Source: a virus (Duplodnaviria; Caudoviricetes). Taken from it: a stretch of DNA of 64,000 bases. This document shows positions 49,445-64,000 of this stretch, piece after piece. The notes under the pieces are model-generated. The model did no database searches and was not told the DNA's origin. It saw only the letters and a program-made list of their open reading frames with translations. Position numbers and translations under genes: made by a program. Positions within the stretch are counted from its first letter, which is position 1. The number at the start of each line of letters is the position of its first letter. The stretch lies in IMG/VR virus record IMGVR_UViG_3300028832_000110, positions 32,001-96,000 of that record, one strand, 5' to 3'.

Positions 49445-49476
49445 TTTGCATATTTCAAATATTGTTTGTACCTTTG
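49445..49476 (+). promoter_or_regulatory. consensus Bacteroidota primary-sigma promoter
   Basis: TTTG (49445), 20-nt spacer, TACCTTTG (49469-49476), upstream of 49537. Confidence 0.8.
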
Positions 49477-49536: not shown

Positions 49537-50175
49537 ATGAACAAAAAGAATTTAGCTACTATCGACACAAGAAAAGACGCAGTAGCAATTATGGAAAAGC
49601 AAAGCGAGAAAAAAGTCGAAAATTCTACGCTTTCAGAAACAGACAAAATTAAAGCGTTTATTTCAGCCGCTGAAAATTCAGACGATTTTAAAGCCGCTAA
49701 AAAGAGCGCAGACGCAGAGCTCAGAAAATTACAAGCTACTTTGTACGCTAAAGTTTACGCCCCTTATTGCGCCAATTATTTGAGCGAATATTTTGCAGAC
49801 GCAGACGCAGACGAAATTAAAGCCGAAATTTCGCAGTTTATTAATGATACTGCAAATTGCACAATTTTAATTGCAAGCGAAAGCCCCGAAAAATTTGGCG
49901 AAAATTCATGCACTACTTTTGCAACTGAAAACCGCAATTTTTATGGCTACGTTTTCAGCCCCGAAAGCGCAGCAAAAGCCGCAAGACTTGTTAATTATTG
50001 GCTTGAGTATCGTCGCAATATCGTTGACTCTTTAGCCGCTAAAGTAGCCGCCAAAAAAGCAACCGCAAGAAAAGCCGCTAAAGCCGAAAAGAGCGCAGTC
50101 GAATTGCTTGCCGAAAAATACGGTGTATCGGTTGAACAACTTAATTCTATACTTGCCGCAAATTTGGCAAAGTAA
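49537..50175 (+). CDS. Ala/Lys-rich hypothetical protein, probable immediate-early gene
   Basis: 212-aa ORF with its own consensus promoter and terminator; atypical word usage. Confidence 0.8.
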   Translation: MNKKNLATIDTRKDAVAIMEKQSEKKVENSTLSETDKIKAFISAAENSDDFKAAKKSADAELRKLQATLYAKVYAPYCANYLSEYFADADADEIKAEISQFINDTANCTILIASESPEKFGENSCTTFATENRNFYGYVFSPESAAKAARLVNYWLEYRRNIVDSLAAKVAAKKATARKAAKAEKSAVELLAEKYGVSVEQLNSILAANLAK

Positions 50176-50196
50176 CAAGACCACACAAGACAAAGG

Positions 50197-50228
50197 AAAA
50201 GGGCTTTTTTAGCCCTTTTTCTTGTTTT
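50197..50228 (+). terminator. intrinsic terminator
   Basis: AAAAGGGCT-TTTTT-AGCCCTTTT followed by a T-rich run. Confidence 0.65.
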
Positions 50229-51148
50229 ATAGGGCTTTTATTCTTTAGCCCTTATATTTTGCCCTTTGTAACTCTAAAAGGTTTTATTTCGGCTTTTGTA
50301 GGGTGCAAATATCGGATATTTCAACGGGCACAAAATTACGCTTTTAATTTGGCTTAATTTAAGCCGCTTTAATAGCTTTTTTATTTCGTACCTTATAAAG
50401 ATACAACAAGACAAAGAAAAGCCCATACAAAGGAAAATAAAAGGGCTTTTTCGGGCTTTTGTGTGTTTCTGGCAAAGGTGCAAATATAAGGGCTTTAATA
50501 TTGCGCTTTTATTTAGGGCAAAGAAAAAGGGCTTAATTTTCGGGGCTTTTGTCTTAATTGATTTTAGCCCTACAAAAAACCGCGTGAATTTTCGCGTAAA
50601 ATTGTGGCGGTTGGTTTCCTGCCTCAACTCCAGCCTGAAAAACTGGAGGGCAAAACGGCAAAAGAAAAAGCCGATCGAATTAGTTTGGCGCAAGCCAGAC
50701 GAATTTCGGGGCAAGTTTTGATGCGCCGTGTGATAGAGCAGAACCGACGAATTTTTTCGTTAGGCTGTGGCAGATCGTTGCGGTTAAGGTTTTGGGGGAG
50801 AAATCCCAGGACCCGAAACGATTGCAAGGAATTTCGTGAAAAATCCTTGTAGAAATCTGAAAAAGTCCATAATTGAATTTTACTCTATTTGGTTTGGGCT
50901 GGCTATGGTGCAGAATATTTTCGTCACTAACTAAGCAAAACATAAGAACGTGAAAGTATAGCATGAAAATATGAGCAATTTTTGATGTAGTTTAGCCTGA
51001 ATAATTTCGGGCGGTGGAAATGAAAGACTTTCCACTGCCTACAAAATTCTGTGGATAATCGGCTTGAAAATAGAGCTGAGAATTGAAAATCGAATTTTCT
51101 CCGCAGAGCAATGGCGATTTTGCCAGAATCAAATTAAAGATAGAAATT

Positions 51149-51888: not shown

Positions 51889-52104
51889 TTTGGTTTGGAA
51901 TTAAGTACGAAACAAGTACGAAAGAGTACGATACGAAGTACGATGGCTTTCAGTACGATTAATTTCTGCTGAAAGTACGAAAGGTTTTTAGTTATTTGCT
52001 TTAGTTATTTTATCTCCCTAATTTGTTGCATCCGTGAGGACTATTACTTTCCCTTGATTAATTTTTCAACGGAAAGTACGATGTAATTCTAATAGTATTT
52101 AGTT

Positions 52105-52326
52105 ATGGCAAATTCAGAGTTCAAAGCAAGCGGTTATTTATGCCTATCAAATTCTGGAGGAATTGAGGTAGAAATAAATAGCTGTGGTGATGGTGTGCGT
52201 TATCGCTTCACCCACGACCAAAAAGTTTCAAGGTGGCAGGAGGTTAAATATTCGCGCCGAGAATCACGACCTTATTTCGTGTGTCATAAACGCAGGTATT
52301 ATCTGGATCAGTTTATGCGCAGTTGA
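52105..52326 (+). CDS. hypothetical protein
   Basis: 73 aa, hairpin leader; RPYF...RRYYLDQFMR C-terminus. Confidence 0.7.
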   Translation: MANSEFKASGYLCLSNSGGIEVEINSCGDGVRYRFTHDQKVSRWQEVKYSRRESRPYFVCHKRRYYLDQFMRS

Positions 52327-52395
52327 AAGTACGAAGAATTTCCCATGATTTAATTATCGTGGGAAGTACGATGAATTTAATGAAAGGAAAAAGTT

Positions 52396-52539
52396 ATGGA
52401 AAAGTCATTCAAAGAAATTGCGGCTCAGATTGAGCGCATTTACACCCTTTATTATCGTTGGGGTTGTGGTACGAAGAAAATGATCGAGAAATCGGAAAGG
52501 TTTTTCACGTCACGGCAAAGAATTGGCTTGTGCTTCTGA
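52396..52539 (+). CDS. 47-aa small protein (not in ORF track)
   Basis: MEKSFKEIAAQIERIYTLYY...; exactly fills the slot between two hairpins. Confidence 0.6.
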   Translation: MEKSFKEIAAQIERIYTLYYRWGCGTKKMIEKSERFFTSRQRIGLCF

Positions 52540-52603
52540 TTTTCCACCGCTTAATTGTGGTGGAGAGTACGAAATTATTTTCTAACACTAAAATGAGTAA
52601 ATT

Positions 52604-52900
52604 ATGGAAACTATTAAGATTAGCGAAAAGTCCTTGAAGAAATTCAAGGGCATTAGACGAAAGAAAATTCTGAAGGTTTTCCGAAGCTATTGTGACGCAT
52701 ACTTAGAGTATGTGAATAATTGGCTGACTTGGGAGAAATTCGTCGAATTCTTTGAACTTGATGAAAAAGAGTGCGAGAATTTACTGCAAGCCGTGAAGAT
52801 GATGAATGCGCAGGATAATACTGCGTACAATTCTCTGGATTATTTCTACCACAAAGTAGCAAACACGAAATTCAGCGAAAAAAACTCATGCTTTGATTAG
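52604..52900 (+). CDS. hypothetical protein
   Basis: 98 aa, hairpin leader. Confidence 0.65.
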   Translation: METIKISEKSLKKFKGIRRKKILKVFRSYCDAYLEYVNNWLTWEKFVEFFELDEKECENLLQAVKMMNAQDNTAYNSLDYFYHKVANTKFSEKNSCFD

Positions 52901-52903
52901 GCC

Positions 52904-53170
52904 ATGGATAAGTTCGGATTGATACGGATATTTTCTAACGGAGAAAGATTCGTGAAACGTCAGCAGGAACACACGCCAAAAGGAACGATGTTCACATTTG
53001 ACATGAAAAAGTTGGATAGAAAACTGAGGAAGAAATCATTTAGTTTTCTGTGCAGGCGCGGAGTCGATGAAATTCAGTACATAAATTTCTTTGTAGAAGA
53101 CAGCCATGAGAATTATCTGGCTGCAAAGGTTTATAACGAGAAATTTCTTTGGGATTGCATCAACTCCTAA
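52904..53170 (+). CDS. hypothetical protein
   Basis: 88 aa, closely coupled to the upstream gene. Confidence 0.6.
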   Translation: MDKFGLIRIFSNGERFVKRQQEHTPKGTMFTFDMKKLDRKLRKKSFSFLCRRGVDEIQYINFFVEDSHENYLAAKVYNEKFLWDCINS

Positions 53171-53244
53171 AATTCTCTTTGCGGTTCCTGGGATAAAGCT
53201 CAGCAACCGCACAATTTATTTATTCACACTAAAATTTATGGACT

Positions 53245-53910
53245 ATGAAACAAGTTACGATTAGGCTTTACAAGTTCGAGGAATTATCCTCAGAATCTAA
53301 GGCGAAAGTTATTGAGCGTGAGCGTGAACAAATTCAGCAGTGGGGAATCGACGCTTGGGATTCCGAGCATCGTGCCACTCTGGAAAAGTTTGAAGCAATT
53401 TTCGATGTAAACGTCAAGCATTGGGAAGTGAATGATTATTCTCATAATTATCAGTTCACTTTCAACAATGATTTCTACGGCATGGATGCAAGCGAAATCA
53501 CGGGCAAATATTTGCTCCGTTTCCTCAACTCCATTTATTACGATGTACGCAGCGGCAAATATTTCAGTTGCGGTCAGCGTTACGACGAGAACGGCAAATT
53601 TCACTACTCCTGCAAGCATTCAAAAATTCTGTGGGAAGAATTTAATTGCCCTCTCACTGGAGTTTGCTACGACAACGAAATCTTGAAACCGATCTGGGAT
53701 TGGCACAAGAAACCGAATTGGAATTTATCTCTGGAAAATCTGGTAGATGAATGCCTTGAAAGTTTCTTCAATTCGTGGGAGCAGGAAATGCTCTATTGCG
53801 GAAGCGATGAATATTGCATCCAAGAATTGACGGAATCGAGTGCTTACGAAGACACGCTCTATTTTGAGGACGGAACTGAGTTCAAAGGAATCTACGAGGA
53901 TGCAGCCTAA
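53245..53910 (+). CDS. conserved acidic hypothetical protein
   Basis: LYKFEELS.E.KAK.IE, CPLTGVCYD and YFEDG motifs recurrent in phage/plasmid early genes. Confidence 0.75.
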   Translation: MKQVTIRLYKFEELSSESKAKVIEREREQIQQWGIDAWDSEHRATLEKFEAIFDVNVKHWEVNDYSHNYQFTFNNDFYGMDASEITGKYLLRFLNSIYYDVRSGKYFSCGQRYDENGKFHYSCKHSKILWEEFNCPLTGVCYDNEILKPIWDWHKKPNWNLSLENLVDECLESFFNSWEQEMLYCGSDEYCIQELTESSAYEDTLYFEDGTEFKGIYEDAA

Positions 53911-53971
53911 AATTTTGGAGGGCTTAATTGCTCTCCAAAGTACGAATAGTATTAACTAAAATTCAATTAGT

Positions 53972-54637
53972 ATGAGAATCAGGCAAGAAACCATTGATAT
54001 TTTGCAGGCGCAAGGTATCAGCATTCGTTGGTATGGTGAATCCACCTACGAAGAGTTCAAGAAAAATCAGTGGGAAAAGCAGTACAAAAAATGGTTTGAT
54101 TATTCAAAGTCATCGTGCAAGGAACTTAACCCACCGAAAAATGACGGCTCGTATGAGAGTTGGAATTACGACACTCTTGCAGAGTACGAGGAATCTATCA
54201 AGAAATTCTGCGACCAAATTATTGACAGGCATTGCAGCCCCTACGAATACGACACGTTATTTGTCGAGCACGATAATGGTCAGATTTTGGTCAAGAAAGA
54301 AAACGTGAAATCTAAGGAGATTACAGTTGACTATGTTTTGAAGTTGGTTGAGAAAGACAGAAAAACCTACGCTGGAACATACGGAAAATTCGCTATGGAA
54401 ATGCAGCGGATTTGCAAGGAAATGGGATATACCACAAGTTTGACGGTTTATCCCACGACCTACGGCATCGGTGTTTGGTTGTTCTATAATTTCCATGCCG
54501 ACACCCATATAGAAAACGTTACGAAAATCATGCAGCAGAAAGGCATAGAATTCTACAACGAATATTCTGATAAGCGTTGGGTGTATAGATTCAAGGTATC
54601 GAAAAAGCGTGAGAATCTGGAGCGAATTTATTCGTAG
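53972..54637 (+). CDS. hypothetical protein
   Basis: 221 aa, hairpin leader. Confidence 0.75.
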   Translation: MRIRQETIDILQAQGISIRWYGESTYEEFKKNQWEKQYKKWFDYSKSSCKELNPPKNDGSYESWNYDTLAEYEESIKKFCDQIIDRHCSPYEYDTLFVEHDNGQILVKKENVKSKEITVDYVLKLVEKDRKTYAGTYGKFAMEMQRICKEMGYTTSLTVYPTTYGIGVWLFYNFHADTHIENVTKIMQQKGIEFYNEYSDKRWVYRFKVSKKRENLERIYS

Positions 54638-54717
54638 TTTATAAAGTTTTAGTGTTTGGGCGGTGTCGATTAATTTCGGCATCGCTTTCTATTATTCACC
54701 AATTAATTCAATAAATT

Positions 54718-54972
54718 ATGGCTTACTATCAGACGCATATTATGATGCAGGAAGAGGACGGAATTTACCGCCATATTCCTCTCTATTTCGGCACTACGCA
54801 GGACAGAAAAGAGGGCGAGGAACATTTTAACAAGGTTTGCGCCCAAATCTTTGAGTTTGAAAAAGACGTAGAATTTAAGGATCACGATGGGCGCGGAATT
54901 TTCGGCACGATAAAAAGTGCTTGCGGAAACGTCACATCGAGTTTCAACATCAAGGGCAAATATTTGGTGTAG
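54718..54972 (+). CDS. hypothetical protein
   Basis: 84 aa, hairpin leader. Confidence 0.65.
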   Translation: MAYYQTHIMMQEEDGIYRHIPLYFGTTQDRKEGEEHFNKVCAQIFEFEKDVEFKDHDGRGIFGTIKSACGNVTSSFNIKGKYLV

Positions 54973-55086
54973 TTGACGCAATCAATTTTCAAGCCGTCAA
55001 CTGCAAGCATTATTTGACTGGAGAATAATGCAGGAATCACTAATCTGGTTCCTGCTGCCTATTGTTTCACTAAAATTTAATGGACT

Positions 55087-55377
55087 ATGTTAGAGATCGT
55101 AAGAGCAGAGAGAATCGGCTTGGAAGAAACAAAGGATTATTCCAGACCAAACGACACACGATTGATGTGGGGATTTGTTGCCGAAATCAGCGATGGCAGT
55201 TTTTACTACACCTCAGAGGGCGGCACTGACATCTACGGAACTTGGACGGAAATCAAGAGCAGAATCAACATTTCCAACGTCCACGATTTCCAGAGCAAGC
55301 ATTTCAACTTTTTCATCAATGATTTGGAAACCTTCAAACATTGCGTGTTGCAGATGCTAAAGGAATTAGGAGATTAA
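55087..55377 (+). CDS. hypothetical protein
   Basis: 96 aa, hairpin leader. Confidence 0.65.
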   Translation: MLEIVRAERIGLEETKDYSRPNDTRLMWGFVAEISDGSFYYTSEGGTDIYGTWTEIKSRINISNVHDFQSKHFNFFINDLETFKHCVLQMLKELGD

Positions 55378-55422
55378 TTTCTCCGATTCCACAAAATTAT
55401 TAACCCCTAAAAATATTTGATT

Positions 55423-56334
55423 ATGGAAACAAGAAATTATCTAAAGTGGAATCCTTCAAAGTTCTACCGCGAGGGAAAAGACAAGATGAAAATCGTTGTT
55501 CACGTAAGTCTTGACGATGAATGTAAAAACAAGCATTGTGATTTCAGTATCACTTGCAGTATTTATCGGGTGGCAGGAAATGGCCATTTAATTGACGCTG
55601 GCGGTGGTTGCAACCACGAAGAGATTGGAAAACACTTTCCAGAATTGCAGAAGTTTTTTCCTCTTCACATTTGCGCCCACGAAGGAACTCCAATGTACCC
55701 CGAAGCCAACGGCATTTATTTCATAGAGCATGATACCAAAGAGTGCGCTATGAGAAATCTGCGTTGCACTGAGGAAGAGTATGAAACGCTCTCAAAATTC
55801 ACGAAAGAAAAGTTGTATTTCAAGTATCTGCTTTTCGACCTTGGTATTGTTGAGCGTTGGAAAAAGGAAGCAGATGAATTCATTGCTTTCCTTGAAGAGA
55901 AATGCGGATATAAATGGGTAAATCCCTACACTCCAGAGCAAGAGCGTTTCCGCTTGGTTTTAACGGACGAAGAAAGGGCTACGATTGAAAAGCAGCTCAG
56001 CGAGGGCGGTTTTACTCCCGAATCTCTGGCAGAACGTCGCCAGAAAGAATTTGAGGCTGAAAAAGCGAAGTATATCGAGGAAATTGAAGCCGAATACAAA
56101 AAGCGGACGGGAAGCGCGGATGCAAAGCGTAAGACTTTGCGCTACATTCTTGACCAAGGAATTTCTCTGAAAAACGTCATCTACTACGACCACAGCAACG
56201 AGGTACACTTTAATTGGAAGTCATACGACGATCTGATTACGCAGGAAGAATTCGTGGATTTCATCAACAATTTGGATTGTTCGATAATTCCAGAGTTTGT
56301 GACGTTCCACATCGACAACGTAAAGCCAGAGTAA
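55423..56334 (+). CDS. conserved hypothetical phage protein
   Basis: LDDECKN.HCDFSIT, GGCNHEEI..HFPEL and G.PMY..ANG motifs. Confidence 0.75.
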   Translation: METRNYLKWNPSKFYREGKDKMKIVVHVSLDDECKNKHCDFSITCSIYRVAGNGHLIDAGGGCNHEEIGKHFPELQKFFPLHICAHEGTPMYPEANGIYFIEHDTKECAMRNLRCTEEEYETLSKFTKEKLYFKYLLFDLGIVERWKKEADEFIAFLEEKCGYKWVNPYTPEQERFRLVLTDEERATIEKQLSEGGFTPESLAERRQKEFEAEKAKYIEEIEAEYKKRTGSADAKRKTLRYILDQGISLKNVIYYDHSNEVHFNWKSYDDLITQEEFVDFINNLDCSIIPEFVTFHIDNVKPE

Positions 56335-56399
56335 TCTCTTCAGATTGTGCGGGATTAATTTTCCGCACAGTCGCCATTAACCCCTAAATTAAAGAAATT

Positions 56400-56657
56400 A
56401 TGGCTTATCCAACTACCGCAAGAGTTTCAATGCTTGCAAACAATCAGTTAATCATCAAGGATGGTGAGAAGCAAATCTTCCAGAGTTATTCATCAATTAT
56501 CTGCGTAAAAGACGGAAAAAATATCACCCTTGACGCAGACAAATGGAATTTCTCAGCGACTACGACAAAGTATTTGGGTCGGTTCCTGGGAATGAACAAA
56601 GCCGAGATTATGAAACACATAAAAGACGGCTCTTTCAAGCTCGCAGACCTCAACTAA
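56400..56657 (+). CDS. conserved small phage protein
   Basis: NQ.II, FQSY.S.I and W.FS.TT.KYL..FL motifs. Confidence 0.75.
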   Translation: MAYPTTARVSMLANNQLIIKDGEKQIFQSYSSIICVKDGKNITLDADKWNFSATTTKYLGRFLGMNKAEIMKHIKDGSFKLADLN

Positions 56658-56719
56658 GGTTTTGAGGCATTAATTTGCCTCAGAACCGCCATAGAATTAT
56701 TCACCTAATAGATTTGATT

Positions 56720-56965
56720 ATGACAAAGAAACAAGCGAGACAGAAAACCCGCAGGCTTATCCGTGACGCATCGGATTTAATGCGGAAAAAGTTGGAAAAA
56801 GCTCTGATTTGCGGAGCAATCAACTTTGACAATTATGACGATGATTATGAACTACCGAGAATTATTCTCATGGCACTCTTGAAAGAAGCGACTTTCCAAT
56901 TCAAGCCTATTCGTGATCCGAAAAAGCAGGAGAAAGAAGCAAACAATATTTACGCTATGATTTAA
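56720..56965 (+). CDS. hypothetical protein
   Basis: Start placed at ATG 56720 after the hairpin leader. Confidence 0.65.
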   Translation: MTKKQARQKTRRLIRDASDLMRKKLEKALICGAINFDNYDDDYELPRIILMALLKEATFQFKPIRDPKKQEKEANNIYAMI

Positions 56966-56983
56966 CTCTAATTTTGTGCGACT

Positions 56984-57208
56984 ATGGCATATACGATTAA
57001 AGGCTTGGCAAAAGCCAACGATTGCGAAGAGCAGAACGAATTCGGACTTGCTCAGGTTTGGAACTACTGGCTTTCTTGCAATAGCAATGACCGCCAATGT
57101 GTGAACGATTTCAAGCGGCTCAGAAAGGAGGAAAGAAAGCGGATGCTTGAACACCTGCGAGAATATCCTACCCTGCGTGAGCACATTATTTCTCACCTCT
57201 ACGACTAA
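56984..57208 (+). CDS. hypothetical protein
   Basis: 74 aa. Confidence 0.6.
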   Translation: MAYTIKGLAKANDCEEQNEFGLAQVWNYWLSCNSNDRQCVNDFKRLRKEERKRMLEHLREYPTLREHIISHLYD

Positions 57209-57264
57209 GTTAGATGGGCGATTAATTTCGCCTACCTAACCCAACCAATAAATTCTATTCAATT

Positions 57265-57603
57265 ATGCCGTACAAATCAGAGAAAATTAAGATTGCCGGA
57301 ACTAAGCATGACCGCAGGCGCAAACTCACTGAAGACCAAAAACAATATATCCGATGGCTTCGTGAGGAAGAGAAAATCAGCTACCAGAAACTTGCAGATA
57401 TGTTCGATGTTTCTAAGAGGCTGATTATTTTCATCTGCAAGCCAGAAATTCAGCAAAAGGCGCGTGAACGATTCAAGAAATACAAAGCAGAGGGTCGTTA
57501 CAAGCCAACGAAAGAGGAATGGGCTGAGACGATGAAAGAGCATCGCCATTACAAGCAGAAACTATTCTGCGACGGCAAAATCAAGGAATCTGCTGACGAA
57601 TAA
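57265..57603 (+). CDS. helix-turn-helix DNA-binding protein
   Basis: KLTEDQKQYIR...ISYQKLADMFDVSKRLI HTH pattern; very basic. Confidence 0.75.
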   Translation: MPYKSEKIKIAGTKHDRRRKLTEDQKQYIRWLREEEKISYQKLADMFDVSKRLIIFICKPEIQQKARERFKKYKAEGRYKPTKEEWAETMKEHRHYKQKLFCDGKIKESADE

Positions 57604-57639
57604 TCACGGATTCCACTATTCACTTAAAATTTGGAAATT

Positions 57640-57855
57640 ATGACTATCGGTTACTTCTACAAAGAGTATGAGATAAATGGTACATTGTATTATATATCTC
57701 AGTATGCAGACAAACCGCATTTCGTAAAACTTTGGGAATACGGCTACGTCTATTTCAACTATCGTATCGGGCAGCAGGTTTACCCCAAAATGTGCGTATC
57801 AATTAGCAGGGGATTGCGATCACGTCCAAATCTCAAAAGGCTATTCGGTAGTTAA
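57640..57855 (+). CDS. hypothetical protein
   Basis: Start placed at ATG 57640. Confidence 0.55.
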   Translation: MTIGYFYKEYEINGTLYYISQYADKPHFVKLWEYGYVYFNYRIGQQVYPKMCVSISRGLRSRPNLKRLFGS

Positions 57856-57900
57856 TTCTACCAATAGCCACAAAAATTATTCACCTAAAAAGATTGAGTT

Positions 57901-58326
57901 ATGGAAAAGAGAAATTTTATCCCTGCACCCATCGACAACAAGAATTTGGTCGAGGATGCCTTTGAGGATGCCAATGAAATATTCGGCAACTTCTACGAGG
58001 GCAAAGGACATCGTGAGAAAGGGCTAAGACATTTGGTTGGCTTTGTTCGGGTATTCGACAAAGAATATCCGCAGTGCGTAAATGCAGAGGGTTACGTCAG
58101 GGCGAAATGGAGTTTTGGCGACAACAAGGTAGAAATCGAAATCCTTGCCAACAATCCCTTCATGGAAGACTATGAAGATACGAAGAAAGACATCTGCGAC
58201 TACTACAAAAAGCAGTTCAAGTCATGGGAAAACGAGCAGAATTTGGGCTTGCGCGTTGAATTCATTGATTATGAAAGCGGAATGTACGTGAGTTTCTTCT
58301 ACGACATGGATGATCCAAATCTATGA
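57901..58326 (+). CDS. hypothetical protein
   Basis: 141 aa, hairpin leader. Confidence 0.7.
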   Translation: MEKRNFIPAPIDNKNLVEDAFEDANEIFGNFYEGKGHREKGLRHLVGFVRVFDKEYPQCVNAEGYVRAKWSFGDNKVEIEILANNPFMEDYEDTKKDICDYYKKQFKSWENEQNLGLRVEFIDYESGMYVSFFYDMDDPNL

Positions 58327-58389
58327 CAATGCCTGCGCCCTCTTAACTGAGGGCATGGGCGCAAATTATTCACCAATAAAATTCAAATT

Positions 58390-58905
58390 ATGAAATTAGC
58401 ATTTTACAAAGTTGACAACTCGCTTGAATATGGTCGCCATGAATTTGACACCATATCTGACAAGCCCGAAGAAATCCTTGAAAAGTTGAGGAAATTGCCA
58501 GATGAAGAATGGCATCTATACGACATCAGCTCTGACAGTTTCAAATCCAGAACCCTCAATCTCTGCGAATTCGTTGAAGACTACAACGATGAAGAATTAG
58601 ATGGTGGTTGGTGGTGCGTTATGATTCCAGAAAAGCGGATGGTTTATGCCGTTTTCGTTGACTATGGAACAATGAGGGAATTGAAACGTGTGTATTCCAC
58701 TGAGGAAAAGGCAAAGGCATACATTGACAAGAAATGCCAGGAGCCAGACAAGCTATTTGAATCCACCATTGCTACGAACTGGAAATACAAGTATCTCTAC
58801 GAGGTCAGAAACAAGCGCACGAATTTGGTGCATTCCTACATCGGATATGCAGAGATAGAACTTGACTGCGAAGAGGATTTCATGGAAAAGCTACGCAACT
58901 TCTGA
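58390..58905 (+). CDS. hypothetical protein
   Basis: 171 aa; VYSTEEKAKAY motif. Confidence 0.7.
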   Translation: MKLAFYKVDNSLEYGRHEFDTISDKPEEILEKLRKLPDEEWHLYDISSDSFKSRTLNLCEFVEDYNDEELDGGWWCVMIPEKRMVYAVFVDYGTMRELKRVYSTEEKAKAYIDKKCQEPDKLFESTIATNWKYKYLYEVRNKRTNLVHSYIGYAEIELDCEEDFMEKLRNF

Positions 58906-58973
58906 TTGGTTATGGTGAGCGAAATATCTCACCATGGCCGCTAAATTTATTCATTCACCTAATATTTTCAGTT

Positions 58974-59150
58974 ATGACCTACGCACAAAGAAAAGAATCT
59001 GCACGTCAAGAAGCTATTGATTGGCAGTTAGAAGCAAGTGAGCAGAATCTATCCTATGGCGAACTTGCTGAAGCAGGCGACCACTTCTACAAAATCGGAA
59101 AACGATTCGGTCTTATCCGCGAATTTCGTGAGAACGGAATCCCATGTTAA
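58974..59150 (+). CDS. 58-aa conserved small protein (not in ORF track)
   Basis: MTYAQRKESARQEAIDWQ...SYGELA...GKRFGLIREFRENGIPC; fills the slot between two hairpins. Confidence 0.75.
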   Translation: MTYAQRKESARQEAIDWQLEASEQNLSYGELAEAGDHFYKIGKRFGLIREFRENGIPC

Positions 59151-59239
59151 ATCTACTCCAGAGAGTACGATTAACTTCGTATTCTCTGCCTATTTCGAGA
59201 GTTTTTTAACCCTATTTATTAATTTAAAAACATTCAATT

Positions 59240-60034
59240 ATGACAGAGAGACAAAATTTTCTCCTTGAACTCTACCGAGAATTCGGTGACAAGGCGCAGA
59301 ACGCATTGGATTTCGTTATCGCTAACGATGGCGGCTCAATCCTCAGACCACAAGCAAATGCACAAGCAAATGCTAATGCAGGAACTATCGAGGTCTATGA
59401 CTTCAAGAATCCAGAAGTTATGCTGAAGGAATTCTATGAAATCAAAGCCAGATTCTTAGTCATCAACAACCACCTCATTAAAAAAGACGTGGAAGATGAA
59501 CTCCTTGACACGCAGGCTGACGGCCTCTACACCTATCTCCGAAACCTCCGCAAGAGAATCGGCGACATCAACTCCGTAAAACTTCAAGACCAACCATTCG
59601 AGGTTGTTGACTTGGGATTGCCCTCTGGCAGAAAATGGGCGAATATGAACCTTGGTGCTACCAAGCCCAACGAAACAGGTTTATACCTCACCCACGAAGA
59701 TGCCTGCAACTTCAAGTTTGAAGACGGATGGAAAATGCCGACTGACGATGACTTCGTAGAACTCTGCGACAACTGCGAACACGAATGGAAGGAAATTGAT
59801 GGTGTCTATGGTCAGATGTTTACATCTAAGATTAATGGCAATTCAGTTTTCTTCCCCGCGTCCGGCTTCTACAATGGTACGACGTTGTACTATCGTGGGT
59901 CGTACGGCCTCTATTGGGCCGCTACGTTGTATTCCTCTTCGAGTGGTCGCCTCTTGTACTTCCTTGCGTCTGATGTCAATCCGCAGAGCAGCTACGATCG
60001 GTTCTACGGTTTTTCTGTGCGCCCGGTTCAGTAA
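59240..60034 (+). CDS. DGR target 2 (remote): unknown N-terminus plus CLec-like (DUF1566/Fib_succ_major-like) domain
   Basis: VDLGLPSGRKWANMN, WKMPT..DF.EL and GFSVRPVQ; the 3' end is VR2. Confidence 0.9.
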   Translation: MTERQNFLLELYREFGDKAQNALDFVIANDGGSILRPQANAQANANAGTIEVYDFKNPEVMLKEFYEIKARFLVINNHLIKKDVEDELLDTQADGLYTYLRNLRKRIGDINSVKLQDQPFEVVDLGLPSGRKWANMNLGATKPNETGLYLTHEDACNFKFEDGWKMPTDDDFVELCDNCEHEWKEIDGVYGQMFTSKINGNSVFFPASGFYNGTTLYYRGSYGLYWAATLYSSSSGRLLYFLASDVNPQSSYDRFYGFSVRPVQ

Positions 60035-60039
60035 TTATT
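59846..60039 (+). repeat. DGR variable repeat VR2
   Basis: 194-bp ungapped match to the TR; about 22 substitutions at TR adenines, one T>G and the stop-creating C>T. Confidence 0.95.
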
Positions 60040-60051
60040 CAACCGCGAAAC

Positions 60052-60098
60052 CCGTCTGCCGACAAAGCCGCCACCAAGCGGCTACAAAAGGCAGACGG
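60052..60098 (+). promoter_or_regulatory. DGR target-recognition hairpin downstream of VR2
   Basis: AGCCGC-CACCAA-GCGGCTAC inside an outer stem CCGTCTGCC/GGCAGACGG. Confidence 0.75.
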
Positions 60099-60163
60099 AA
60101 AATTAGGAGGAAGCGGATCAATTTCTGCTTTCTCTTCCATTGTCTAACCAAAAAAGAAAAATT

Positions 60164-60700
60164 ATGGAACTGAAAATTGAAACCAAGCAGGAATTGAAGT
60201 ATGTGATGGATTTCTACAACATTCCTTTCGTGCCAATACATGACGGCAAAAAGGATATGGGAAAAATCACGCGAGAAATGAAGTACGAACCCGGGCATTG
60301 GAGATACAATTCGGGCTTCGAGTATCTTGGCTTTGAACTTGCTTATGAGCAAATCAAAGACGTTATCGCTCTCAAAGAGAACGTGAGAAAACCATTCAAA
60401 GCCATTCTGGTATATAGAGTGGAAGAGCAGACTTGGAATTATCCAGACGTTGAAGGTGGTATTCCCTGCCATCACGTCTATCCCAAGACAGTTGTACGCG
60501 AGACCGAGAACGAAATTGAGGGAACAATGGACGAAGTTTTTGTCACTTGCTTCAAGTCAAACAATACCATGCGCTATTGCAACGGACATCGTTATCATTT
60601 CAAAGACGATAAGGTTAGTGATATGTATTATCTCTGGCTGAAACTTATGCCCGATGCACGGCATTTCGACCTCTACTACGGCAACGGCATTGTTGACTAA
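60164..60700 (+). CDS. hypothetical protein
   Basis: Start placed at ATG 60164; LYYGNGIVD C-terminus. Confidence 0.7.
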   Translation: MELKIETKQELKYVMDFYNIPFVPIHDGKKDMGKITREMKYEPGHWRYNSGFEYLGFELAYEQIKDVIALKENVRKPFKAILVYRVEEQTWNYPDVEGGIPCHHVYPKTVVRETENEIEGTMDEVFVTCFKSNNTMRYCNGHRYHFKDDKVSDMYYLWLKLMPDARHFDLYYGNGIVD

Positions 60701-60761
60701 GGGAAATGCGGATCAATTTCCGCACTCCCACATTAATGTTTCACTCTAAATTCAAAAAGTT

Positions 60762-61298
60762 ATGGAAAAAATTATGTTATTGGATGCCAATGTTGGCGAC
60801 GTTCTTTATGTAAGAATGAACAAAACTGTCATTGCAGTTAAAATCGTGAAGTTTATTTGCGGTAGCATCGGTGCCTCTTCAAGTGATTCATCCTATGTCT
60901 GGCTGCTTATTGCAGGGCAGGGTGACAATCCTCAGCAGAAGTACATCGGAAAACACAATACCGAGAAATATTATCGTACCATTGAAGACTGCATCAACGA
61001 CAAACCCATTGAGAAGTATGTCGTGGATGCAAAAGAGTTGGCAGAAAAATGCGGCATGGAATTGACGCATGAGTACAGCTCTATCGGATATGGCTACGAT
61101 GGTGTATGGAAATTCGAGTGGGATGGATTCATGCCTAAGAGGGTTCACGTTGCATTGAGTGAATTCCACCTCGTAAACGATGCCGACGGATGGCACTACG
61201 AGGTTTACAAGAAATCCTACGAGCGTGAGCCGAGGAAATTCTACGACACCTATGAAGAATGTATCGCCGACAACCAAGTAAAAGTGGTTGCTTTCTGA
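60762..61298 (+). CDS. hypothetical protein
   Basis: 178 aa with the repeated motif Y.T.E(D/E)CI.D. Confidence 0.7.
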   Translation: MEKIMLLDANVGDVLYVRMNKTVIAVKIVKFICGSIGASSSDSSYVWLLIAGQGDNPQQKYIGKHNTEKYYRTIEDCINDKPIEKYVVDAKELAEKCGMELTHEYSSIGYGYDGVWKFEWDGFMPKRVHVALSEFHLVNDADGWHYEVYKKSYEREPRKFYDTYEECIADNQVKVVAF

Positions 61299-61365
61299 TT
61301 CCTCCAGACCATTTCGCGCTAATCCTCGAAATGGTCACGATTTATTCACCAAAATTCAGAAGATT

Positions 61366-61620
61366 ATGAAGACAAAGTATGAAAACGGAATCCTCTCCTT
61401 TACTGAGGATTCAGATGATGAAAAGATTTTCAGTGTCATCGGCACGAAGTATGGCGATGGTGACAGATTCGTTCGCCTTATGACCGAGAAAGAAGTTAAG
61501 GAAGAAATTCCAGATGAAAAGGAGTGGAGTATGCCCATCGACGAAATGGAGGTTGGCGACACCTCAACCTATGGCTATTGGCACTACGACAAAGCGAATA
61601 TCATTGTCCGCGTTGCCTGA
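61366..61620 (+). CDS. acidic hypothetical protein
   Basis: Start placed at ATG 61366. Confidence 0.65.
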   Translation: MKTKYENGILSFTEDSDDEKIFSVIGTKYGDGDRFVRLMTEKEVKEEIPDEKEWSMPIDEMEVGDTSTYGYWHYDKANIIVRVA

Positions 61621-61680
61621 CTATGTGCGGAATAATATCCGCATATAGCCCTATTATTTATTCACCAAAATTCATTTATT

Positions 61681-62346
61681 ATGGCAAAGAAAAATATAAA
61701 GCACACCGATTTCGGGTTGTGGGAAAGCCCAGAGAAATGTTTAGGGCATTCTACCCTCATTTACGGCAACAAACAAGAATTGTTGGGATTGGCGAGAGGT
61801 ATTCAGTTTATGCTTGAAAGAAAATACGCAAGACCTCACGTTGAATTTAACGATGAAGAGAACAACTATTCTATGAGTAGTAGTAAAACCTACTCGCTCA
61901 AACACTGCATCGTAGAAGAGATTCCAGAGCGTAAAGTTGAAGAGTATAACGAATGGATAAAATATACTGGCTTCAAGATTACGCTTACCGAGAATGACAA
62001 CGATGATGATGGTTACGACATCGGCATTGACAACGGCTGCTATGTTGAGGATTTCAGAGAATTCAGCATTGAACCATGCAAAGACATATCCCAAGCCGCA
62101 CACGAATGCCGAATACGTTATGTAATAATGGACGAAAACAAATACCTGAATCCGACATACATCAGAGAACGTCTTTCCTCTCTTGGTTATGACGGAGAAA
62201 AGGTTAAGGAAGAAACGATCACTCATATCCGAATGATAATGTCAAAGGGTGCATACGAATGCCCTCAGTCAATAGGAATTGGCTTTGACATTGCGCTCAA
62301 AAAGAATGCGGAGTGGTTTCTTAAATCAAACAACCTCTATCAGTAA
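61681..62346 (+). CDS. hypothetical protein
   Basis: 221 aa, hairpin leader. Confidence 0.7.
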   Translation: MAKKNIKHTDFGLWESPEKCLGHSTLIYGNKQELLGLARGIQFMLERKYARPHVEFNDEENNYSMSSSKTYSLKHCIVEEIPERKVEEYNEWIKYTGFKITLTENDNDDDGYDIGIDNGCYVEDFREFSIEPCKDISQAAHECRIRYVIMDENKYLNPTYIRERLSSLGYDGEKVKEETITHIRMIMSKGAYECPQSIGIGFDIALKKNAEWFLKSNNLYQ

Positions 62347-62403
62347 GCCATTGAGCCGATTAACTTCGGCTCCTGGCACTATTAACCCTAAAATTCAAGA
62401 ATT

Positions 62404-63183
62404 ATGAGAGTAAAAATTAAATTCGACCCAGACGGCGAGTATGGTTATCCCAAAAACATAATCATCAGCGCACAACAGTTGGTAAGGGATTACATCGACC
62501 ACTTAAATGAAGTCGAAGATGCAGACACCATTTCTTTCCTCAGAAAGACAGAAATAGGAAAGGCAGTTGACTTCGTGGCAGAAATGTGGGAACTTGACTA
62601 CGACGTGGTTTCTACCAGAAACATTCGCAGATGCAGCGTTTGTGGCAAACTCATTTCCTCTGGCTATCTCTTTGACGGAACAGATGCGTTCTGCGACAAA
62701 GATTGTGCAACACGATTCTTTGACAATGATGAAGGATGCGTGGATATTCTTATTGACGAAGGTGAGAGATTAGTCTGGCATGATGAATTCCCACTACGCG
62801 ACCACTACCGCGTAAACATTGGACACTTTGCCACCGAATGCTTCCACCATTTCGACAACGAAGACAGAATGTTCCAATGGATTTCTGAAATGATTGGTCA
62901 GAAAGTCAGTTCGTTTGAAGATTGTGAGGAATGGACGCGCAAGCAGGATGATGAAAAAGGCAGATACATCGAGATTCTTTGCATCGACAATATTCCAGAG
63001 TTTTACAAGCATCGCAGGGAGTACGTTCAATGCCTGCAAGATTGCGATGACCTTATGACCAAAGCTCAGAGGTTGCCATTAGGTGCAAAACGTGACTACC
63101 TCATTCGCAGGTTTGGCAAACGCTATGAAGATGCGAATTGGTATTGGGATGCCTACCCAGAAATCTGGCAGGGAGAGATTTAA
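62404..63183 (+). CDS. hypothetical protein with a zinc finger
   Basis: RRCSVCGK.ISSGY......FCDKDC. Confidence 0.72.
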   Translation: MRVKIKFDPDGEYGYPKNIIISAQQLVRDYIDHLNEVEDADTISFLRKTEIGKAVDFVAEMWELDYDVVSTRNIRRCSVCGKLISSGYLFDGTDAFCDKDCATRFFDNDEGCVDILIDEGERLVWHDEFPLRDHYRVNIGHFATECFHHFDNEDRMFQWISEMIGQKVSSFEDCEEWTRKQDDEKGRYIEILCIDNIPEFYKHRREYVQCLQDCDDLMTKAQRLPLGAKRDYLIRRFGKRYEDANWYWDAYPEIWQGEI

Positions 63184-63229
63184 CTATCTCCCCTACCTCT
63201 ATTTTATTCACTTATTAATTCAGTTAATT

Positions 63230-63388
63230 ATGATTCAGGACTTTTCAAAAGTAAATTCCAGACCCGACCACGTTGTATGCAATAAATGTGGGAAGGAAAT
63301 GTACGTTGACTATGACGTAGATGTTTGCCCGTGTTGTGGCGAAGAAGGTTATCTCATGGATATTGAGCAGGAAGTGGAAATCAATTAA
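63230..63388 (+). CDS. 52-aa zinc-ribbon protein
   Basis: CNKCG...CPCCG; start placed at ATG 63230 after the hairpin leader. Confidence 0.7.
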   Translation: MIQDFSKVNSRPDHVVCNKCGKEMYVDYDVDVCPCCGEEGYLMDIEQEVEIN

Positions 63389-63399
63389 AACTTACGGCT

Positions 63400-63636
63400 A
63401 TGTATGTAGTAAAGACCAATATCCCAACTATCAAGGATGAATATCGCAAGCAGAGTTTCAGCAGGAAACGCGATGCCATGCGCACATTCACGAATATGCG
63501 TAGATTCTGCGACAACAACGACTATGCCTACAAATTGTTCATCCGTGACCCCAAAACCCGCAGGAAGCCCATCAGAGGCACGATGCAGGTAGAAATCGGT
63601 GGATTCTTTTTCTATGTTGAACTTTATAGAGAGTAA
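63400..63636 (+). CDS. hypothetical protein
   Basis: 78 aa. Confidence 0.6.
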   Translation: MYVVKTNIPTIKDEYRKQSFSRKRDAMRTFTNMRRFCDNNDYAYKLFIRDPKTRRKPIRGTMQVEIGGFFFYVELYRE

Positions 63637-63641
63637 TTGCT

Positions 63642-63815
63642 ATGGAAGAAAAGAAAGTTTATCTGATTGTTCAAGATGTGCCGTCTTCAACGAAGACTTT
63701 GGCGCGAGTGTTCAGTTCGCCGGAAAAGGCGCAGGAAATTGCCGAAAGCCGCGACGAAAGAACTGGAGAGAAAGTCTACCCCAACAGCCGCGTCGTTGAG
63801 CGCGTTGTGGAGTAA
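63642..63815 (+). CDS. 57-aa small protein (not in ORF track)
   Basis: MEEKKVYLIVQ...RVFSSPEKAQE; motif similar to that in 58390..58905. Confidence 0.6.
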   Translation: MEEKKVYLIVQDVPSSTKTLARVFSSPEKAQEIAESRDERTGEKVYPNSRVVERVVE

Positions 63816-63878
63816 CGCTATGGATGCTCTGGCTTAACTGCCGCTGCATCCGCTATGTCTAACCAAACATTATAAATT

Positions 63879-64000
63879 ATGAACGAAGAAAGAATCGTTG
63901 AGGTTTTCGACCATGCTCAGAACCTACGCAAGAAGTCTGGCAAAAAACAGGCTTTCATTTATCTCGTTGGCTGCTATGCCGCACACACAAAGCCCAACTG
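63879..64000 (+). CDS. hypothetical protein, 3'-truncated by the window edge
   Basis: ATG 45 nt after the loop of the last hairpin; frame open to the end of the window. Confidence 0.55.
   Translation, partial: MNEERIVEVFDHAQNLRKKSGKKQAFIYLVGCYAAHTKPN

Follow-up and report, generated by a model that had tools for sequence, protein, structure and literature searches.

A candidate PeSL-like linker, built of a variable-stem hairpin and a conserved leader, in the accessory gene array of a rumen siphophage

The locus and the question

Between 51.9 and 64 kb of a 64,000-nucleotide stretch of viral DNA (Duplodnaviria; Caudoviricetes), the small genes of a rightward array are separated by hairpins whose stems differ from one copy to the next and whose loops are nearly constant. 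The stretch, here called the window, comprises bases 32001-96000 of a 107,405-bp viral contig (IMG/VR record IMGVR_UViG_3300028832_000110) with a completeness rating of 99%. The question raised by this locus is what such hairpins do between genes. The answer favoured here, with a probability of about 55%, is that each hairpin and the leader behind it form a composite intercistronic linker that resembles the promoter(early) stem-loop (PeSL) cassettes of T4-type phages and doubles as a recombination linker. The element is read in this way because both its anatomy and its behaviour in the population match those of PeSL cassettes; for the same reason, the view taken in a preliminary description of this DNA, that the hairpins are not a described element, was too strong (PMC2839356; PMC4122927).

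PeSLs consist of a stem-loop and a promoter placed between the stop codon of one gene and the ATG of the next in hyperplastic regions, with crossovers occurring between the -10 box and the ATG (PMC2839356; PMC4122927). The present linkers separate the small accessory, mostly ORFan, genes of a Bacteroidota-type rumen siphophage. The virus is regarded as siphovirus-like because its genome encodes a tape-measure protein of 2450 amino acids (aa), a large terminase, an SPP1-type portal and a primase. Nearly all genes of the array are without family assignment. About 24 hairpin-led gene slots had been described at 51.9-64 kb; the array itself stands, and its right-hand limit was that of the window only, as the array continues to genome position 101.5 kb (window-equivalent 69.5 kb).

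Public sequencing runs with this phage come from the bovine and goat gut and rumen. Besides three possible source runs, about 13 DNA runs from about 10 studies contain roughly half of the array's sequence words, as expected if they hold mosaic relatives. A megablast comparison of the array with GenBank phages gave no match, and a primase-profile scan of GTDB genomes returned only relatives of at most 37% identity, the nearest in Bacteroidales/Alistipes metagenome-assembled genomes, which lack hairpin arrays.

Exchange of genes at the linkers

The comparison rests chiefly on L004, an IMG/VR relative that is 97-98% identical in shared blocks, on a goat-gut run (X4), and on G001, an IMG/VR relative of about 70% nucleotide identity that is syntenic from primase to recombinase. 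L137 is a short third variant, and a search of JGI metagenomes with one exact linker returned two contigs, one being G001 and the other a short variant.

The ends of mosaic junctions in L004 and run X4 fall in the stop-to-ATG linkers in 23 of 27 cases, while these linkers make up 15.5% of the region (binomial p = 5.5e-14 for the 22 ends counted by script; the 23rd, at 64266, was re-read as ATG+2 of a mis-called gene). As with PeSLs, then, the indel and replacement junctions of close relatives lie within the element. Relative to L004, seven segments are replaced or absent. Identity with L004 stops 0-12 nt before an ATG, past the AAAATTCAA box, and restarts at the stop codon or the 5' base of a hairpin (61305, 62342) or in the gap between hairpin and TATTCACC (57875). 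An open reading frame (ORF) at about 56719-56983 is present in the window and missing from both L004 and run X4, with the joint at the ATG. Run X4 shows further replacements, from 52083 to 52377 and from 54702 to 55022, as well as a 2.9-kb skip that leads from the end of the hairpin with its loop at 57852 to the leader of gene 60762. In the same run, a back-joint connects the end (60135) of the hairpin with its loop at 60118 to the leader (53957) of gene 53972, which results in an altered gene order. At 61681-62346, ORFs have been swapped without either flanking hairpin. Between related phages, whole ORFs are thus swapped, deleted or reordered at the linkers, and the earlier question of whether genes are gained or lost at hairpin boundaries can be answered in the affirmative, since genes have been gained, lost and replaced at hairpin or leader boundaries in L004 and X4.

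Anatomy of the linker

A linker is about 75 nt long. It runs from the stop codon of the ORF before it, across 2-14 nt, to a 12-bp hairpin, and about 30 nt of unpaired conserved leader then connect the hairpin to the next ORF. The window phage and G001 together provide 44 linkers, in most of which the upstream stop precedes the stem by 2-14 nt; the next ATG lies 21-36 nt past the stem end in all but a few. In 19 of the 22 cases measured in this genome, 22-35 nt separate the stem end from the ATG, which is equivalent to the loop-to-ATG distance of 43-53 nt given previously. Whole linkers fold into a single hairpin and an unpaired leader, with z-scores of -3.0 to -5.6. Two parts of the PeSL definition are accordingly seen here, namely a repeated stop-to-ATG element between small non-essential ORFs of a hyperplastic region and a stable stem-loop within that element.

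The leader carries a series of short boxes, in which the position of TATTCACC may alternatively be taken by TAACC. In a first class of linkers, AGTACGA abuts the 3' arm of the hairpin. One example of the leader, and the set of AGTACGA copies at the head of the array, are located as follows:

54688-54720, + strand: unpaired conserved leader with CTATT, TATTCACC (or TATTAACC/TCTAACC), an A/T box of the TAAAATTCAA type and ATTATG; kept in G001 and in the more distant relatives L185-L187
51903-51985, + strand: six (A)GTACGA copies with 10-15-nt spacing at the array head; conserved in G001 and L185-L187

The hairpins between 51947 and 63851 are listed below; further hairpins of the array lie beyond the window.

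51947-51976, + strand: hairpin, loop TTAATT, 3' flank AGTACGA (class 1)
52046-52075, + strand: hairpin with bulges, loop TTAATT, 3' flank AGTACGA
52338-52367, + strand: 12-bp hairpin, loop TTAATT, 3' flank AGTACGA; ortholog at G001 12561
52539-52568, + strand: 12-bp hairpin, loop TTAATT, 3' flank AGTACGA
53180-53211, + strand: variant two-tier hairpin, loop ATAAAG, then a TATTCACAC..TAAAATT leader; ortholog in G001
53912-53941, + strand: 12-bp hairpin, loop TTAATT, AGTACGA and a TATTAAC.TAAAATTCAA leader; compensatory G-C to C-G change in G001
54658-54687, + strand: 12-bp hairpin with four G.U pairs, loop TTAATT; six stem changes in G001, all pair-keeping
55028-55057, + strand: hairpin, loop CTAATC; loop CCAATC in the G001 ortholog
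55362-55391, + strand: hairpin, loop TTAATT, the loop TAA being the stop codon of the upstream ORF
56343-56372, + strand: 12-bp hairpin, loop TTAATT
56658-56687, + strand: 12-bp hairpin, loop TTAATT; top score of the covariance model described below, 34.2 bits
57210-57239, + strand: hairpin, loop TTAATT; a different hairpin precedes the same downstream gene in G001
57585-57614, + strand: variant hairpin, large loop with AATAAT
57840-57869, + strand: hairpin, loop TTAATT with stop codon; replaced along with the upstream ORF in L004
58331-58360, + strand: hairpin, loop TTAACT
58907-58940, + strand: variant 13-bp hairpin, 8-nt loop CGAAATAT
59159-59188, + strand: 12-bp hairpin, loop TTAACT, 5' of the second target gene of a diversity-generating retroelement (DGR)
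60106-60135, + strand: hairpin, loop TCAATT; 3' end joined to the leader of gene 53972 in run X4
60701-60730, + strand: hairpin, loop TCAATT
61307-61336, + strand: hairpin, loop CTAATC; L004 identity restarts 2 nt before its 5' base
61621-61648, + strand: variant hairpin, AATAAT-type loop; stem identical in G001
62348-62377, + strand: hairpin, loop TTAACT; L004 identity restarts at the stop codon 6 nt upstream
63168-63197, + strand: hairpin, loop TTAACT containing a stop codon
63822-63851, + strand: hairpin, loop TTAACT

In six of the 44 linkers, the upstream ORF ends with the TAA of the loop (TTAATT or TTAACT), which lies at +13 from the first base of the stem in every case (window 55374, 57852 and 63180; G001 12225, 16126 and 24619). 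At hairpin 60106, the odd stop-to-hairpin distance of 74 nt is due to a long GC-rich hairpin at 60070-60115, placed between the second DGR target gene (59240-60034), which it directly follows, and the array hairpin; it may be the DGR-associated structure.

Structure, strand and covariation of the hairpin

All 20 loops located in the preliminary description contain the hexamer given there between complementary arms, and its four variant hairpins also fold, at 53180-53211, 57585-57614, 58907-58940 and 61621-61648. The stem length of 9-14 bp that accompanied them needs correction to 12 bp: in 23 ungapped hairpins, positions 1-12 pair (at position 12, 14 Watson-Crick and two G.U pairs), and position 13 drops to four Watson-Crick pairs.

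The stems are rich in G.T pairs on the + strand, as had been noted; a count gives 35 G.T against 12 A.C. The fold of the + strand is about 4-5 kcal/mol more stable than that of the - strand, the + strand being favoured in 19 of 23 hairpins (p = 2e-4), and the same advantage of the sense strand is found in G001 and in L185. Both the G.T excess and the asymmetry in fold energy place the fold on the coding strand.

The base sequence of the stem is not conserved among hairpins. Pairing is kept by 18 two-sided and 19 one-sided changes across the 13 pairs of orthologous hairpins of the window and G001, the one-sided ones mostly exchanging G-C with G.U or A-U with G.U, as compared with six changes that break it. 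Over 43 distinct hairpins, 91% of cells are paired; shuffling lowers this to 46%, and sliding the register to 42-51%. These counts uphold the earlier proposal that structure is selected while stem sequence is free, and since the stems of orthologs keep their pairing, in many cases through G.U, selection acts on structure in the sense strand. The simplest reading is that the folded molecule would be RNA, with sense-strand single-stranded DNA as the alternative.

Across 42 distinct matches to the covariance model, the loop consensus is T1, T/C2, A3, A4, N5, T6, with a few C..C variants (CTAATC). Positions 1 and 6 of the loop match each other, either as T (TTAATT) or as C (CTAATC, CCAATC and CCAACC), the C forms occurring at 55040 and 61319 and at G001 15790, 22949 and 29386. 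This pattern would be consistent with a YAAY tetraloop closed by an isosteric pyrimidine-pyrimidine pair, the independent cases being few.

A simple scan gave 15 such hairpins on the + strand at 52-64 kb, as against two elsewhere in the window on both strands. When a covariance model (R1) built from an alignment (A1) of 23 hairpin copies was run on 134 kb from this phage and its relatives, it gave 54 matches (E <= 0.05), every one on the array strand. It gave one weak match (E 0.11) in 792 kb of unrelated viral contigs, a negative control made up of contigs from an IMG/VR scan for the leader-box pattern whose matches were mostly due to chance. The array thus holds more of the hairpins than chance would give, all on its + strand. 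An identical weak match of 17.8 bits (E 0.08) was seen outside the array and on the opposite strand in two related contigs (L134 3197-3231 and L136 5452-5486, both - strand), and is probably an unrelated conserved hairpin. In Rfam, no family matched at its gathering score, and at E <= 1 only a chance match to a miRNA was returned.

Distribution in relatives

In G001, about 24 matches to model R1 lie on the same strand. Between the window and G001, linkers are 84-86% identical, as against 66-73% for ORFs, and 18 of the 38 array ORFs are without an ortholog in G001. Contigs L185, L186 and L187, which carry relatives of a 221-aa marker protein of the array at 75%, 68% and 61% identity, have linkers composed of a CTAAAC-type stop context, an 11-13-bp hairpin, a TAACC/TCACY box, an A/T box and ATTATG; the stem base is frequently formed by ACT...AGT|ACGA. 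The loops of these contigs differ from those of the window, some showing a recurring apex of their own, and model R1 gave no significant match on these three contigs. Since L185-L187 keep the linker with other loops, the linker is clade-wide, the TTAATT loop is confined to the subclade of the window phage, L004 and G001, and the loop is not the defining feature of the element. The conserved loop of the preliminary description thus holds within that subclade and fails in L185-L187. In L188, an ENA scaffold with the marker at 47% identity, the small genes overlap or abut and hairpin linkers are absent, which makes it a natural contrast for asking what the linkers contribute.

Expression signals and RNA contigs

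Bacteroidota-type promoters (TTTG/TAnnTTTG) occur at a few sites of the genome. Sigma-70-like sites in the linkers show no excess over shuffled sequences, and the leaders contain a conserved non-canonical box pair that is a candidate promoter. The loop itself was rejected as a promoter hexamer, as on inspection no spacing between loop and leader box gives the Bacteroidota -33/-7 geometry. Kissing between loops, or between loop and leader, was dropped since only 4 nt of A/U complementarity are available.

Metatranscriptome contigs were obtained from runs X17, X18 and X20, at low depth and with parts of the array uncovered. They cover array ORFs and span gene junctions that have no hairpin (52900/52904 and 51387). 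Not one of the 23 RNA contigs listed connects two ORFs across a linker, and a single contig overlaps a hairpin, ending at its 3' base (58362). These contigs give a weak hint that RNA is discontinuous at the linkers.

A proposed PeSL-like cassette linker

Under the reading of the element as a PeSL-like linker, the array would be transcribed rightward by the host RNA polymerase, and the hairpin would form in the RNA right behind each stop codon. It would insulate each cassette as a 3'-end element, by attenuation or by blocking 3'-5' decay, rather than as a U-tailed terminator. The leader would serve as a standard start site, unstructured and free of a Shine-Dalgarno sequence, and may in addition hold a weak non-canonical promoter that gives rise to a very short 5' untranslated region (UTR). 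The conserved boxes (the CTAA(A/G) stop context, ACGA/TATTCACC, AAAATTCAA and ATTATG) could provide the short homologies for cassette exchange. In the subclade of the window phage, the UUAANU loop on a fixed 12-bp stem suggests that an additional, lineage-specific reader may exist.

Several observations weigh against this reading. A passive barrier leaves the conserved loop, the free stem and the fixed 12-bp length unexplained. Where the stop codon lies in the loop, ribosomes must melt the hairpin. With regard to termination, a U-tract is absent behind all but two of about 24 hairpins even in a lax T-run test, as had been reported; the same phage has a canonical T-tailed terminator at 50193-50223, and the hairpins are not classical intrinsic terminators. 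No host-type promoter (TTTG/TAnnTTTG) was found in the linkers, although such promoters are present elsewhere in the genome, so the strong host-type early promoter of a PeSL is not recognisable here. Searches of the genome with Sigma70_r2 and Sigma70_r4_2 found no phage sigma factor; a search for a T7-type RNA polymerase also found none and is uninformative because it gave no signal in any control genome. The breaks between RNA contigs could equally come from low depth, strain junctions or poor synthesis of complementary DNA (cDNA) through hairpins, which can be poorly converted (PMC7366714).

If the linkers are PeSL-like, a large clade of Bacteroidota-type phages of rumen and gut would share with T4-type coliphages the principle that regulatory linkers serve as joints for single-gene shuffling; in this clade, the signals for transcription and translation depart from those of the E. 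coli model. The linkers would show where cassettes begin and end when the accessory genes of these phages are read, and synthetic operons in Bacteroidota could draw on them as candidate insulator and start modules. The combination of a variable stem with a lineage-specific apex would also offer a clean natural data set on the question whether a protein reads such hairpins.

Alternative readings

The alternative that survives best, though doubtful, is that the hairpin is chiefly the recognition site of a single lineage-specific RNA-binding protein, from phage or host, that would read UUAANU on a 12-bp stem. Candidate readers include a loop-ruler endoribonuclease that would cut the polycistronic early RNA into monocistronic pieces, and an array-wide antiterminator or translational regulator. 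In the 42 distinct hairpins, little or no variation is seen at loop positions 1-4 and 6 while stems are free, stem length is fixed at about one A-form turn, and the fold is strand-specific. The other loops of the relatives, some with a recurring apex, are what co-evolution with a reader predicts, and the ends of RNA contigs cluster, weakly, near linkers. Nevertheless, no candidate protein has emerged: the conserved array proteins, encoded at 53972-54637, 57265-57603, 61366-61620 and 63642-63815, match no RNase or RNA-binding family, and a Colicin_D match of one of them lies below the cut-off. Moreover, the wider clade keeps the linker without this loop, so that the linker works without it, and concerted evolution through frequent recombination at linkers could also make loops uniform. 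A narrower and still more tentative proposal is that the 12-bp UUAANU hairpin would be the docking site of an unannotated, lineage-specific phage protein, either an endoribonuclease that measures the loop or an anti-attenuation factor by which the whole array would be switched on or off. If so, relatives with other loop signatures would carry co-evolved readers, and the array would represent a natural, modular and protein-addressable operon architecture in Bacteroidota lacking Shine-Dalgarno signals.

It is improbable that the hairpins are ordinary terminators, each followed by an ordinary promoter, which would make every small gene its own transcription unit and leave the loop without further meaning. 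Each hairpin does stand directly after a stop codon, the stem-loops of PeSLs were shown to terminate (PMC2839356), four of the eight X17 RNA contigs listed start within 3 nt of an ATG, and a TAAAAT box at -13 to -8 from the ATG resembles the -10 element of a leaderless mRNA. However, the stems are without the T-run, and the linkers without the promoters, that this phage possesses elsewhere, 5' UTRs shorter than 10 nt are rare in Bacteroides (about 3.7%; PMC7366714), and the ends of RNA contigs are not ends of transcripts.

The least probable reading, raised earlier as a cassette recombination site, takes the hairpins for integron-like sites that would fold in single-stranded DNA and let a distal tyrosine recombinase (genome 100550-101494) move ORF cassettes site-specifically; a tyrosine recombinase does lie at the array end, in a place conserved in G001 (77% aa identity), the cassettes are co-oriented, mostly without recognisable promoters and gained or lost at boundaries, and structure is conserved with free sequence as in attC, but the recombinase belongs to the generic Phage_integrase family (56 bits; Xer far below threshold and no integron-integrase model over its cut-off), R/L core boxes and extrahelical bases are absent, junctions lie before the hairpin, after it or beside the ATG with no common crossover point, the ORFs at 61681-62346 were swapped without either flanking hairpin, and the sense strand folds here. 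In attC, it is the bottom strand that is folded and recombined, with a single crossover point at the 3' core site.

Comparison with known systems

The closest counterpart of the present element is the PeSL, likewise a repeated composite element that fills the stop-to-ATG gap between small ORFan genes of a hyperplastic region (Arbiol et al., 2010, PMC2839356; Comeau et al., 2014, PMC4122927). In either system, a conserved expression signal accompanies a stem-loop, ORFs are deleted, inserted or replaced among close relatives by crossovers that fall between the element and the ATG, and the details of the motif are specific to the lineage. They differ in that the stems of PeSLs are conserved (GGGG..CCCC), while here the stem is free and the loop conserved. 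A recognisable host-type promoter and a U-tail are also lacking here, so that the likeness is one of anatomy and junctions, and the setting is a Bacteroidota-type host with starts free of Shine-Dalgarno signals and a siphovirus-like virus with a DGR and an integrase.

The RNase III sites of the T7/T3 early operon (R0.3-R1.3) are similar in being inter-cistron hairpins of an early polycistronic RNA that are selected as RNA structures. Processing by RNase III in T7 leaves a 3' hairpin that stabilises the upstream message. Those sites have about two helical turns, an internal loop and no conserved apical loop, in contrast to the single 12-bp stem with conserved hexaloop described here; the helix of about 20 bp, or of two tiers with an internal loop, expected of a T7-type site was not found, as the stem ends at 12 bp. 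At the attC sites of integrons, which mark the boundary of co-oriented cassettes, structure is likewise conserved while sequence is free, and a tyrosine recombinase lies beside the array. This locus differs from an integron in lacking an IntI-type integrase, the R''/L''/L'/R' boxes and a fixed crossover point; it is also the sense strand that folds here, and ORFs move without the hairpin.

In Cluster K mycobacteriophages, the start-associated sequence (SAS) and its extended form (ESAS) place a conserved box at a fixed short distance 5' of many start codons on the same strand, often after an inverted repeat (PMC3203893), and a role in translation initiation was suggested (Pope et al., 2011, PMC3203893). 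The arms of ESAS are conserved and its spacer variable, the reverse of the pattern seen here; SAS has a Shine-Dalgarno-like core, and no cassette swapping has been reported for it (PMC3203893). The boxB of lambda-type nut sites is likewise a small RNA hairpin whose loop, rather than its stem, could be read by a phage protein. Its stem has 5 bp and its loop is a GNRA-like pentaloop; a boxA accompanies it, and a genome has one or two copies, unlike the approximately 27 copies of a 12-bp stem with a UUAANU loop in this array.

Neighbouring features

Upstream of the array, a canonical bidirectional terminator with a 13-bp stem and T-runs on both strands (50193-50223) lies 3' of a gene for a 212-aa protein (49537-50175), which has the only full TTTG-N-TAnnTTTG promoter near the array, at 49445. 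The AT-rich segment between terminator and array (50230-50560) contains many short repeats of the GGGCTTT(T)/TAGCCC type, which are iteron- or operator-like, and a similar repeat field is present at 9.6-11.2 kb of G001. The leader box pair (TTCACC TAAAATTCAATTATGGAC) also occurs in reverse orientation, at window 50868-50893 and at genome 96173-96197 (window-equivalent 64173-64197); the latter looks like a relic of an inverted cassette, because only a two-codon ORF (ATG GAC TAA) follows.

The 221-aa marker protein (53972-54637) belongs to no family and is the best-conserved product of the array, with 87% aa identity in G001. Its relatives form 210 clusters of 47-88% identity in ENA, Logan and JGI assemblies, and a PDB sequence search and an ESM Atlas look-up yielded nothing usable. 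Its sole family signal is the Colicin_D (tRNase) match, at 20 bits against a cut-off of 25. A 112-aa protein (57265-57603), conserved in L004 (78%) and G001 (71%), gives several sub-threshold helix-turn-helix matches (HTH_11, HTH_7 and Sigma70_r4), and is possibly a small regulator encoded within the array.

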